Sequence record: OP557969.1 | Source of the DNA: Escherichia phage ph0011 | Length of the DNA stretch: 64,000 nt | Direction: 5' to 3' (one strand) | Part shown: one piece after another, positions 15,390 through 61,136 of the stretch | Layout of the letters: each line of letters starts with the position of its first letter | Numbering within the stretch: the stretch's first letter is position 1 | Program-made: the position numbers and the translations under genes | Notes under the pieces: model-generated | What the model was told of the DNA's origin: nothing | The model's input: only the letters and a program-made list of their open reading frames with translations | Databases searched by the model: none

Positions 15390-15506
<117 letters not shown>

Positions 15507-15511
15507 AAAAG

Positions 15512-15585
15512 ACGGGGTATAGCACAATTGGATAGTGCAAGAGAATTCTAATCTCTAGGTTGGGGGTTCAAGTCCCTCTACCTCG
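15512..15585 (+). tRNA. tRNA-Arg (anticodon TCT)
   Basis: acceptor CGGGGTA/TACCTCG (one G-U), D stem GCAC/GTGC, anticodon stem AGAGA/TCTCT loop ATTCTAA, T arm GGGGG-TTCAAGT-CCCTC. Confidence 0.7.
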
Positions 15586-15610
15586 GCCTACTTTAATTAA
15601 AGGTTAAACC

Positions 15611-15775
15611 ATGACGCATGAAGAATGGATGAATGACATTAATTTTAGATATGCAGGTATCGGTAACTGGAGAAAGTATCATTGGGAAATCATATCAGAC
15701 CCAGCAGAATACGATAAACTTATGAATCATGAAGTGTATCCGTGGTTCTTTATTGAAATAATGGTACGATTATGA
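15611..15775 (+). CDS. MTHxEW small-protein family member
   Basis: MTHEEWMNDINFRYAGIGNWRKYHWEI...; ATGA overlap. Confidence 0.45.
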   Translation: MTHEEWMNDINFRYAGIGNWRKYHWEIISDPAEYDKLMNHEVYPWFFIEIMVRL

Positions 15776-15932
15776 CACATGAAGAATGGATGAATGACAT
15801 TAATTTTAGATATTCGGGTATCGGTAAATGGCTAAAGTATCATTGGGAATTCATTTCAGAGCCACATCTGTATGATAAACTTATCAACGATTCTGCATAT
15901 AAAATGTACTTAATTGAACTACTGGTACGAAT

Positions 15933-15936
<4 letters not shown>
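15772..15936 (+). CDS. MTHxEW small-protein family member
   Basis: MTHEEWMNDINFRYSGIGKWLKYHWEF... Confidence 0.45.
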
Positions 15937-16105
<169 letters not shown>

Positions 16106-16108
16106 AAG

Positions 16109-16553
<445 letters not shown>

Positions 16554-16581
16554 GTATCTTAATAACAGAAGGTATATTGAA

Positions 16582-16821
16582 ATGAGTAAGTATTTTGTGA
16601 GTTATAGTTATAATGTATCACGAAAGATTCCACGTGGTGACGGAATGGGATGGTCTTATGATGCATATACTTTAAATGAGTCATGTATCATCGAATTAAA
16701 AGAAAAAGACCTTGACATTTTAAAAATCAAACAATATATTCTTGATGTTGAATTGGCACATCGTACTGATATCTATCCAGATGTAAATAACATCAGCATC
16801 TTAGTACTAACCAAAGTATAA
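16582..16821 (+). CDS. hypothetical protein
   Basis: start MSKYFVSY after AAGG. Confidence 0.45.
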   Translation: MSKYFVSYSYNVSRKIPRGDGMGWSYDAYTLNESCIIELKEKDLDILKIKQYILDVELAHRTDIYPDVNNISILVLTKV

Positions 16822-16827
16822 GATAAA

Positions 16828-16861
<34 letters not shown>

Positions 16862-17215
16862 GAATTCCACAATCAGACGTATATGGTGTAAGTTACGTCG
16901 ATGCAATCCAGAACAAGATCTCTGGTACTCTAGGAAGTGGTTAATGTTAACCTAGACGGGTTTGATAATTGGACGATAGGCAATTATTACTTGACTAGCA
17001 GGTTTAAACTAGAGGTGACTATCCTTCACCAAACTGGAAAACCGGATGGACTTTTATTTAAAAGGGTAAGGCGTGGAAATATGTTTACAGTAGTTGCTTT
17101 TAGTAGCCTGTACGCCCCACGTCAAGGTAGCCGAAAGGCAAGTTAAAACGGGTGGTTATAAAGCTGAATTAACAGCGGCGTTTAAAAGCGTCACCATCCA
17201 TTTTTTTTAATTAAA
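16862..17215 (+). ncRNA. candidate structured stable RNA(s), unclassified
   Basis: ~350 nt directly downstream of an early promoter, ending in a T-run, with no RBS-associated ORF and locally higher GC; sits in the tRNA cluster. Confidence 0.35.
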
Positions 17216-17224
17216 GTTGGTGAT

Positions 17225-17863
<639 letters not shown>

Positions 17864-17882
17864 CTTTTTAATTTAAAAGTAC

Positions 17883-17910
17883 TTTACTGTAGTGTTTAGT
17901 ACCGTATAAT
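17883..17910 (+). promoter_or_regulatory. candidate early promoter
   Basis: TTTACT-N16-TATAAT. Confidence 0.45.
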
Positions 17911-17936
17911 GTAAACAAAAGGATAAAATAAAACTC

Positions 17937-18461
<525 letters not shown>

Positions 18462-18483
18462 TTAAAAAATCAGTACTTTATTA

Positions 18484-18697
<214 letters not shown>

Positions 18698-18720
18698 TCA
18701 TTGCACTCTTCTCTTGTAAT

Positions 18721-18868
<148 letters not shown>

Positions 18869-18889
18869 TTCACATGATATAGGGTACAC

Positions 18890-19147
<258 letters not shown>

Positions 19148-19163
19148 ATAAAAAGAACGAAAA

Positions 19164-19205
<42 letters not shown>

Positions 19206-19215
19206 GATTCCCGAT

Positions 19216-19342
<127 letters not shown>

Positions 19343-19361
19343 AGAGGTACTTCGAGTATGC

Positions 19362-19417
<56 letters not shown>

Positions 19418-19436
19418 AACTACTTTTTAATTGACG

Positions 19437-19487
<51 letters not shown>

Positions 19488-19504
19488 TACAACCGACAAT
19501 GACT

Positions 19505-19571
<67 letters not shown>

Positions 19572-19746
19572 GAAGAAACTGCTAAACAGCTTGAAGAACT
19601 TTGTAGTGCTGCACCGATGCCGACTCTTGGCTTAATCAAGTTGATGCGTCGAAATAAGAAAAATTTAAAATAATACAGTAAGATGGCCTCCCCTCCATAT
19701 CATGAGAGTATAGAGACTTGTTGGTTATCTTACTTTTAAACAAACT

Positions 19747-19820
19747 GCCTCAATAGCAAAATTGGTAATGCACACGTTTTGTAAGCGTGAGATTTTTCCG
19801 TTCGAGTCGGAATTGGGGCA
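19747..19820 (+). tRNA. candidate tRNA-Thr (anticodon TGT)
   Basis: acceptor GCCTCAA/TTGGGGC (one U-G), anticodon stem CACGT/GCGTG loop TTTGTAA, T arm TTCCG-TTCGAGT-CGGAA; 6-nt variable loop is atypical. Confidence 0.5.
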
Positions 19821-19837
19821 CAAAATAAAGGCACACT

Positions 19838-59966: not shown

Positions 59967-61136
59967 TTAAACTGGCGAATCTAATATAAATTCTAAACTA
60001 CTAATGCCACCATATGTGACATCTGTTCCCGTGCTATATACAAAATTACCATCAGTTATATAAGTTCGGTTATAACTACCTGCCATCTGTGACTTACTAT
60101 AATCAAACCCATCAGGTACGATTGCTTTGGTATATACTAATGCATTAGTAGATGTACCAATACCTAACATACCAGCTTGTGTAGATTGATTGTAGCCGCA
60201 ACAATATATACCATCTGTTGTAGCAATAACTTGGTTATAATTTGAAGTATTGTTAGCAATGCTTACTACATCACCAGGTGGCATTAGTGATGCTGTTTGT
60301 ACATCAAATGCTCTATAATCTTTGAGAGAACCATCTTTCCCATCTGCTTGTGCACCAAATATTCTTGAACCACCATTTGCGATGATAGTTTTACCAGTGG
60401 GATCAGTGCCTATTGCCATTGCCATTGAAGTACCATTATTCACATAGTACTTTATATTAATTGTATTACTTAAGCTGGTAGGAGCACCATAATATATATT
60501 ATATAACTTACTTCCTGAACTTGTAACTGCATTGACTCTTCCTGTATAAAATAACCATCCTTGGCTTGTAACATAACCGTGCATTAAATTACTTGCAAAC
60601 AATTTAACAGGTAATTGATTTGCTGCGGTAGGAACAGTACTTTTGACGAATCTACCAGAAACATTGTTAATTGTTGTCCCATCACCCAACTGACCATCCG
60701 ACCCTACTCCAGTACTCCATATTGTTTGGTCTGATAGTAACACACTTGTAGTCTGATAACTAACGGCTATATCTAATATTGGTAATGTTAATGTATTGAA
60801 TATAGGCATAGCAGATGTCCATATTGATACTCCTGACCCTTTCATACCAACAGTTGTTGAACTTCCACTGTACCATATTTCATTATTGCTTTTCTTAACA
60901 ACTATCGACGTGGCTCCCATCCAAAAATCTTCAACACCAGAAGTACTAAAAGTCCATGTAGTAACAGTATTTTTGTGACCTAAACCCAAAATACCATATG
61001 CATTATCACCACGCACATATAAATCACCACTGTTTGTTAAAACAGCAACATTATAGTTGTTAGCAAGTATTTTTTTAATATTTGGTTTAGCAGGTGCAAT
61101 ATTCCCGTACTTAACCATCCTCGCAAAAGGTAACAA
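59967..61136 (-). CDS. beta-propeller (RCC1-like repeat) protein, MLPFGRM family paralog 2 (TTG start)
   Basis: (M)LPFARMVKYGNIAP; initiation codon is TTG where paralogs have ATG; repeats DLYVRGDNAYGILGLGHKN. Confidence 0.5.
   Translation of the reverse strand: MLPFARMVKYGNIAPAKPNIKKILANNYNVAVLTNSGDLYVRGDNAYGILGLGHKNTVTTWTFSTSGVEDFWMGATSIVVKKSNNEIWYSGSSTTVGMKGSGVSIWTSAMPIFNTLTLPILDIAVSYQTTSVLLSDQTIWSTGVGSDGQLGDGTTINNVSGRFVKSTVPTAANQLPVKLFASNLMHGYVTSQGWLFYTGRVNAVTSSGSKLYNIYYGAPTSLSNTINIKYYVNNGTSMAMAIGTDPTGKTIIANGGSRIFGAQADGKDGSLKDYRAFDVQTASLMPPGDVVSIANNTSNYNQVIATTDGIYCCGYNQSTQAGMLGIGTSTNALVYTKAIVPDGFDYSKSQMAGSYNRTYITDGNFVYSTGTDVTYGGISSLEFILDSPV

Follow-up and report, generated by a model that had tools for sequence, protein, structure and literature searches.

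Stable RNAs encoded within the tRNA clusters of phages T4 and T5 have, to our knowledge, been known for decades, and their function is still unexplained. The T4 RNAs rnaC and rnaD (species 1 and 2), each described as a 'small, stable RNA', are encoded on the tRNA strand right after a tRNA gene, in the order tRNA-Arg, rnaD, rnaC, and rnaC ends in a tRNA-like T-arm and acceptor. T5 has eight 'stable RNA with unknown functions' among its tRNAs (RNAI, RNAIII, RNAIV, RNA1, RNA2, RNA2H, RNA3 and RNAX), of which RNA2H, 172 nt in length, follows promoter P13b and is in turn followed by tRNAs. Among larger phage RNAs, ROOL has a length of ~580 nt. ROOL and GOLLD are phage- or prophage-encoded, multi-pseudoknotted and often located near tRNA islands, have no known protein partner or function, and in the case of GOLLD are often >800 nt long (PMC12286853). 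Hepatitis delta virus (HDV)-like theta ribozymes are reported as pseudoknotted elements directly beside phage tRNA genes (PMC10879173). The present study concerns positions 16862-17215 of a 64,000-nt stretch of Escherichia phage ph0011 (OP557969.1), hereafter the window, for which an earlier note had proposed a promoter-driven, stable RNA of ~350 nt analogous to those of T4.

This segment probably consists, with a probability of about 0.8, of structured non-coding RNA genes of a new family that would be co-expressed with tRNAs. The choice of a non-coding RNA rather than a protein gene is supported by the covariation-backed fold of the first 190 nt, by the tRNA genes that flank this part in other phages and by an open reading frame (ORF) that is not conserved. 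The notion of a single ~350-nt molecule did not survive, however: the 354 nt are made up of two or three separable modules, forming two RNA genes designated A and B.

The fold of module A was derived from relatives of the enteric group, which were aligned and given a structure by inspection, and from which a covariance model (CM), R1, was built. This set alone has 16 pairs with compensatory changes, compared with 4.2 in shuffles. R1 recovered all of the divergent homologues at 72-94 bits, and the scores of the homologues overall extend from 72 to 243 bits. Because RNAalifold was unreliable in the 5′ half of the raw MAFFT alignment, owing to misalignment, a CM-guided alignment was used instead; it comprises 20 distinct sequences of 185-208 nt from ~8 phage lineages, in which 48 proposed pairs were compared with 500 column shuffles. 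Standard pairs occupy 96.2% of the cells (77.5% in the shuffles), 34 of the 48 pairs show compensatory changes (21.0 in the shuffles), and the covariation score is 0.507 (0.177 in the shuffles); none of the 500 shuffles equalled any of these values. When the partners were slid by 1-3 columns, 29-42% of the cells were paired. Five helices (P2, P4, P5, S1 and P7) are recovered independently by RNAalifold, and the helices of both pseudoknots covary even though they lie outside the covariance model. The promoter and the elements of module A are the following.

16833-16861, + strand: sigma-70-type promoter, with -35 TTGACT (16833-16838), a 17-nt spacer, an extended -10 TG and -10 TATAAT (16856-16861).
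16862-17051, + strand: module A, a conserved structured RNA of ~185-190 nt (240.7 bits with R1).
16876-16899, + strand: hairpin P2, GACGUA (16876-16881) with UACGUC (16894-16899) and a conserved GGYG-like loop motif; 6 of 6 pairs compensatory.
16908-16925, + strand: hairpin P3, CCAGA with UCUGG and a variable loop; 4 of 5 pairs compensatory, 83% paired.
16929-16956, + strand: hairpin P4, UCUAGG with CCUAGA and a 16-nt loop; 6 of 6 pairs compensatory, 99% of cells paired.
16964-16988, + strand: hairpin P5, GAUAAUUG with CAAUUAUU; 7 of 8 pairs compensatory (helices 5 and 6).
16989-17012, + strand: H-type pseudoknot, formed by S1 (ACUUG, 16989-16993, with CAGGU, 16999-17003) and helix Y.
17014-17051, + strand: hairpin P7, GGUGA (17014-17018) with UCACC (17026-17030), 100% paired, and a loop-tail pseudoknot.

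The lower pairing of P3 is due to a mis-registered alignment of the Aeromonas members, in which CCAG and CUGG do pair. In the H-type pseudoknot, the CUAG of the S1 loop (16995-16998) pairs with a second CUAG (17009-17012) to form helix Y; S1 is 99% paired, with changes between CG, GC and AU, and helix Y is 100% paired, with changes between UA and AU and between AU and GC. The second pseudoknot joins the P7 loop NNCC (17021-17024) to the 3′ tail AUGGNN (GGAC, 17048-17051) and is 97% paired; its two variable pairs appear as GC, AU, UA or GU and as UA, CG or UG, respectively, and the window copy has one A-C mismatch in the covarying register. The 46 invariant alignment columns are concentrated in the CGG of the junction after P4, the P5 loop, the pseudoknot core and the AUGG of the tail. 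Within the CGGG junction (16957-16960), C16957, G16958 and G16959 are invariant and G16960 is present in 19 of 20 sequences, and the P5 loop GACGAUA (16972-16978) is identical in all 20. G-U pairs are abundant on the + strand, two examples being a GU found in 15 and a UG found in 19 of the 20 sequences. Read on the opposite strand, such pairs would turn into C-A mismatches, and the molecule under selection is therefore the + strand RNA. A closing helix P1 was omitted from a second model, R2, since it is restricted to the enteric group and is probably left out of the transcript, given the predicted start. A third long-range pairing, between GGUUU in J4/5 and AAACC in the tail, was rejected, as it shows no compensation in PM2, Aeromonas or KP13.

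Module A is not a peculiarity of one phage type. The window derives from a jumbo myovirus of the 121Q/PBECO4 type (Asteriusvirus), in ~25 genomes of which the region is 97-99% identical, and by blastn the segment alone, without its flanks, is conserved in Klebsiella RaK2-like phages. Bases 1-188 of the segment (module A, 16862-17049) are found again in unrelated phages, with blastn identities of 84-93%, namely in the T4-like Bragavirus (Proteus PM2, Pm5461, Morganella vB_Mm5 and Shigella SdyM_006) and the T5-like Novosibvirus (Proteus phages 1, 2 and M4H10_20), whose identity to the window copy in the structural alignment is 83-88%. Klebsiella phage KP13-16 (Stephanstirmvirinae) and Aeromonas T4-like phages match less strongly; together with the IMG/VR lineages, they are ~59-64% identical. 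In all of these phages, module A is unannotated, lies on the tRNA strand and starts either 0-3 nt past the CCA with which a tRNA ends or immediately behind a promoter. The layouts are as follows.

Bragavirus: tRNA-Gly, A, tRNA-Asp.
Novosibvirus: tRNA-Leu, A, tRNA-Ser.
KP13-16: tRNA-Leu, A.
Aeromonas Ishigurovirus and Ceceduovirus: tRNA-Pro, A plus ~90 nt, tRNA-Thr.
Metagenomic contig L022: two diverged A copies flanking tRNA-Arg.
Asteriusvirus EJP2: promoter, A, tRNA-Ser.

In Bragavirus, Novosibvirus, KP13-16 and the Aeromonas phages, the position of module A is precisely that between one tRNA gene and the next. EJP2 has module A only of the A+B pair, and in EJP2, in the window and in contig L020 module A follows a promoter and not a tRNA. 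The two paralogues on L022 (positions 2100-2613; ERZ808232 NODE-1756) surround a tRNA-Arg(ACG), are each 72-84% identical to the window copy and represent the only duplication of module A seen. The ~90-nt stretch between A and tRNA-Thr in Ishigurovirus and Ceceduovirus is itself conserved and non-coding and has two predicted hairpins; it occupies positions 1585-1667 of locus L006 (phage avDM6), has equivalents in L012-L016 and is unrelated in sequence to module B.

A pattern built on the invariant core matched seven IMG/VR contigs, corresponding to six isolates already known and one new 120-kb virus, and four metagenome contigs, and gave 0 matches among 185,579 bacterial and archaeal species, each represented by one genome. 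Likewise, blastn gave no match in 5,426 complete Escherichia coli genomes or in 72,556 plasmids. A further IMG/VR locus (L028) from a relaxed pattern scan was discarded as a chance match without a CM hit, as was an apparent second window copy at 60042-60187 on the - strand (R2 score 14 bits, E 0.017), from which the 74 central positions are missing and which falls within a 389-aa ORF. On the evidence of these searches, module A is confined to large virulent phages with tRNA arrays; its carriers belong to at least six taxonomic groups and infect Escherichia, Klebsiella, Salmonella, Proteus, Morganella, Shigella and Aeromonas. Comparison of these sequences clearly points to a horizontal spread of module A across phage families.

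The signals around the segment in the window agree with this picture, and all of the elements that the earlier note had described are present where it placed them. The promoter that it had placed at 16833-16861 is the 29-mer TTGACTAAATAGTTCAGTACTGATATAAT, with a score of 11/12 relative to the sigma-70 consensus; an exact copy is found at 18484-18512 and a one-mismatch copy at 17592-17620, where 0 matches in the window would be expected by chance; transcription is predicted to start near 16868-16869. The tRNA-Ser gene at 17627 is preceded by one of the other two copies at a distance of 6 nt, and the tRNA-Ser gene at 18523 by the other at 10 nt, so that RNA genes are what this promoter variant drives. 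EJP2 has the same promoter in front of module A, and JNE01, another Asteriusvirus, has it in front of module B. The segment does lie in a tRNA cluster, the tRNAs of the window being at 15419-15588 and 17627-19821 on the + strand, and its GC content is indeed raised, at 0.39-0.43 over 16900-17199 compared with 0.29-0.32 in the flanks, thereby resembling tRNA genes. The potential stems that had been noticed are reflected in a folding of the + strand that is better than in shuffled sequences (minimum free energy -95.1 kcal/mol, z = -2.59, 0 of 100 shuffles as good), whereas the - strand folds no better than shuffles (z = -1.15). The T-run was also located correctly, as eight T at 17201-17208 after a stem.

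Module B and the junction between the two modules comprise the elements below.

17052-17066, + strand: A/U-rich spacer between A and B, where a promoter is present in relatives.
~17067-17210, + strand: module B, containing a long hairpin, a GAAA hairpin and a Y-shaped terminator element.
17070-17123, + strand: long hairpin B1, a predicted fold with outer stem GGCGUGG with CCACGUC, followed by ACAG with CUGU and GUUGCU with AGUAGC.
17130-17139, + strand: GCC-GAAA-GGC tetraloop hairpin, which travels with B2; in EJP2, both lie between tRNA-Ser and tRNA-Arg.
17150-17210, + strand: Y-shaped element B2, with a 7-bp outer stem GGGUGGU with ACCAUCC (17150-17156 and 17193-17199) and a variable second hairpin.
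L021 329-437, 721-829 and 1720-1828, L027 1196-1304, and L007 1407-1515: recurrences of B2, of which RaK2-like phages and EJP2 have several per genome.

In RaK2 and in the RaK2-like metagenome contig L021, A and B are separated by an insert of 40-50 nt that contains TTGAAC, a 17-nt spacer and TATAAT, and JNE01 has module B only of the A+B pair, with a promoter directly before it. Because A occurs alone in EJP2, B occurs alone in JNE01 and separate promoters exist, A and B are separate RNA genes. Hairpin B1 starts directly past the promoter in JNE01 and RaK2. At the centre of B2 is the invariant UAUAAAKCUGAAUURACAG, and its stem is followed by an A and then by U8 at 17201-17208, so that a stem containing G and C and a run of U, as in an intrinsic terminator, are both present. 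In seven distinct copies of B2, 97% of the cells are paired, 5 of 15 pairs are compensatory and the outer stem covaries. A simple terminator scanner missed the element because the stem encloses two hairpins. RaK2-like genomes carry B2 after tRNA-Arg, before module A and at the end of B, with weaker U-runs; one RaK2-like contig has three copies. B2 is thus placed as what is probably an intrinsic terminator and 3′-end structure that can be reused in RNA-gene cassettes.

A copy of B1 that is 81% identical, with compensating changes in the outer stem, is found in Kuravirus podophages within a 650-nt ORF-free region. In Escherichia phage vB-EcoP-XT18 (locus L026, ~1150-1790), this region is hairpin-rich and lies upstream of an 'endonuclease' gene; besides the copy of B1 it holds a GGACGAUAU loop like that of module A, and it ends in a T-arm-like GUAGGUCCGAACCCUAC. 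It gave no Rfam match at E ≤ 0.1, and the ~650 nt may represent another large uncharacterised phage RNA.

Neither module appears to correspond to an RNA of a described family. The Infernal scan that the earlier note had suggested, performed with Rfam 15 (4227 models) at gathering thresholds, returned only the seven tRNAs from the window. Positions 16700-17400 gave, at E ≤ 10, four chance-level matches of 12-18 bits, as against thresholds of 38-70, and at E ≤ 0.1 there was nothing over module A in eight homologous loci. ARAGORN detected no tRNA or transfer-messenger RNA (tmRNA) within the segment. Identities as tmRNA, RNase P, 6S, Y RNA, riboswitch or ribozyme were rejected, since there was no Rfam match at either gathering or permissive E-values. 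The proposed analogy with the T4 RNAs holds for the context, because module A, like rnaC and rnaD, lies inside a tRNA cluster, on the tRNA strand and right after a tRNA, but it does not extend to homology, for which R1, R2 and blastn gave no indication. Neither model matched T4 positions 66000-75000, where blastn-short found only matches of 8-9 nt (E ≥ 0.8). Unlike rnaC, module A has no tRNA-like part, and it contains two pseudoknots. The layout of T5 RNA2H resembles the promoter-A-tRNA order of EJP2; the 26 kb of T5 between 24000 and 50000 gave no match on either strand at E ≤ 10 with R2, the only model applied there, and T5 is absent from all blastn match lists. In the T5-like Novosibvirus, module A is located between tRNA-Leu and tRNA-Ser, a position different from those of the T5 stable RNAs. 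ROOL and GOLLD are also phage-associated and near tRNA islands, whereas they are ~3-4 times larger, form nanocages and occur in prophages; module A, with ~190 nt, is found only in genomes of virulent phages and in metagenomes and matches neither of their Rfam models. Literature searches gave no description of module A, although a fragment of it could lie among the >10,000 unnamed phage candidate RNAs, of 29-151 nt, that are catalogued in PMC10690425. The family and the fold of module A thus appear to be undescribed, while its kind, the stable RNAs of phage tRNA clusters, has long been known.

Several other explanations of the conserved segment have to be weighed against that of RNA genes. Maturation of the neighbouring tRNAs by module A itself, as a processing element acting in cis or as a self-cleaving ribozyme in the manner of theta ribozymes, is unlikely. 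In favour of it, module A begins 0-3 nt past the CCA of the preceding tRNA in five lineages, its core is pseudoknotted and highly conserved and includes unpaired nucleotides that are invariant, and ribozymes beside phage tRNAs have a precedent (PMC10879173). P7, the strand after it and the loop-tail pairing do resemble P3, P1 and P1.1 of HDV; the topology is nevertheless not HDV-like, because no 3′ strand of P2 follows, the strand before P7 pairs upstream in helix Y, the 5′ helix P1 is limited to the enteric group, the nested P1/P1.1/P2/P3 arrangement is lacking, the molecule is three times larger and no HDV-type or other Rfam ribozyme matched even at E ≤ 10. In addition, what precedes A in the window, in EJP2 and in L020 is a promoter and not a tRNA, and the flanking tRNAs encode CCA and are separated by short A/U spacers of the kind generally processed by the host. 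Very unlikely is a role of the region as a cis-regulatory leader, a riboswitch or attenuator that would control the 124-aa gene at 17225-17599 through the B2 terminator. An aptamer-like H-type pseudoknot with an invariant core and a terminator-like stem with U8 only 14 nt before the start region of that ORF would suit such a leader, but a tRNA gene and not an ORF follows A in all other lineages, the positions of B2 after tRNA-Arg and before A in RaK2-like genomes are those of a general terminator, and A and B are separable and have their own promoters.

Coding constraint on a small ORF is a highly improbable source of the conservation. The candidate, a 69-aa ORF with a GTG start (16937-17146, + strand), is open in the window and in 121Q, and a 'hypothetical protein' is annotated over the segment in several GenBank records. 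The absence of a ribosome-binding site, which the earlier note had pointed out, was confirmed: AGGA at 16932-16935, which is the sole stretch rich in purines, is separated from the start codon by only 1 nt and is therefore not usable. The product matched no family in Pfam or PHROG, although PHROG families exist for the ORFs of 124 and 54 aa nearby. An in-frame TAA breaks the ORF in RaK2 and contig L021, where the insert between A and B also shifts its frame; neither EJP2 nor JNE01 nor any tRNA-flanked copy of module A has it intact. That TAA is created by a change that is compensatory in helix P5. The substitutions track base-pairing and not codon structure. The 69-aa ORF is, on this comparative evidence, spurious, and its frame is not conserved in relatives. 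A similarly remote explanation is that the block is conserved as DNA, for example as the target of a homing endonuclease, a recombination hotspot or a selfish cassette, with the RNA structure being incidental. Its patchy spread at 83-93% identity across unrelated phage families implies recent horizontal transfer, and genes for HNH- or Seg-type endonucleases are present in the same tRNA clusters (17937-18461 in the window and a segD-like gene in SdyM_006). A DNA target site would not need the fold that the lineages with ~60% identity keep, however, nor does it account for compensatory changes that preserve the helices, for G-U pairs that are valid only in the + strand RNA or for an orientation that is always that of the tRNAs.

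The reading as RNA genes co-expressed with tRNAs has its own weak points, and the following weigh against it. All members are known from sequence alone, which applies to their expression, their 5′ and 3′ ends and their stability. The alignment contains only ~8 independent lineages, and several helices are near-invariant in the enteric group, which is the best sampled; the divergent members were aligned by the covariance model, which favours the modelled helices, although this is mitigated by the pseudoknots outside the model and by RNAalifold. Within the fold, the closing helix P1 (UUCCA with UGGAA) is invariant in the enteric group but missing from all other members, and helix Y has a competitor in an alternative helix, Z. 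Module B is little diverged, so its fold rests on few compensatory changes. Finally, nothing points to a particular partner or ligand, and no co-occurring protein gene was identified.

On the basis of the sequence signals, expression in the window can be pictured as follows. A and B have lost the promoter between them here and are presumably co-transcribed as one unit from the strong sigma-70-type promoter, with transcription ending at the Y-shaped B2 stem and U8. Module A would then begin at its own promoter and be cut from B within the A/U-rich spacer, which is a likely site of endonucleolytic processing. In the other phages, judging from gene layout and established tRNA processing, A would be freed by tRNA maturation: the precursor would be cut past the upstream tRNA, RNase P would act at the downstream one, and trimming by exonucleases would stop at the 3′ pseudoknot. 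On the likeliest of the readings considered, the released A would be a stable, nuclease-resistant molecule acting in trans, whose CGGG junction, GACGAUA loop and pseudoknot core could form a binding surface for a protein or small ligand, conceivably one linked to tRNA or translation supply or to host defence; a specific binding or decoy role in trans is put forward only tentatively. Module A would move between virulent phages within mobile tRNA-cluster cassettes.

A more far-reaching idea, which is rather doubtful, is that A is an RNA-only accessory gene with a biochemical activity of its own, traded together with tRNA cassettes among T4-like, T5-like, jumbo and phi92-like phages because it counters a host response. 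Candidate activities are an aptamer sponge for a host immune signal, a decoy for a tRNA-targeting defence nuclease or RNase, and a new class of ribozyme. Three observations fit this idea without demonstrating it: the core of the pseudoknot is invariant, the distribution across families is patchy and identities are high, and cellular genomes have no copy.

Other features of the cluster deserve mention. Most of the 121Q-like relatives do not conserve the small ORF upstream of the promoter (16552-16821) but do conserve the promoter itself, the RNA genes and the 124-aa ORF that follows them; therefore, the RNA cassette has a variable left neighbour. Further upstream (15611-16097), tRNA-Arg is directly followed by a tandem array of three paralogous 54-aa ORFs (MTHEEWMNDINFRY...), in which stop and start codons overlap. 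They belong to phrog_10970, and the same triplet is annotated in JNE01. The tRNA-Ser gene at 18523-18614, for which the exact copy of the 29-bp promoter serves, carries an unusual anticodon, ACT, whose wobble position is an A; JNE01 and EJP2 also possess this gene. Embedded in the tRNA/RNA cluster is an HNH homing-endonuclease-like gene (17937-18461; NUMOD4 and HNH_3, phrog_59). The heg genes of T5 and the seg genes of T4-like clusters offer a parallel, and horizontal exchange of the RNA cassettes could plausibly be mediated by this gene.

For annotation, the 'hypothetical protein' labels over this region in many jumbo-phage records should be removed, and module A and the B2 terminator element could enter RNA family databases. 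Module A adds to the stable RNAs of T4 and T5 what would be a further, unrelated family, with a well-supported, pseudoknot-rich fold and an invariant core. Its shared fold, its broad distribution among phages and its absence from bacterial genomes and plasmids may make it a practical entry point to the question of the stable RNAs in phage tRNA clusters.

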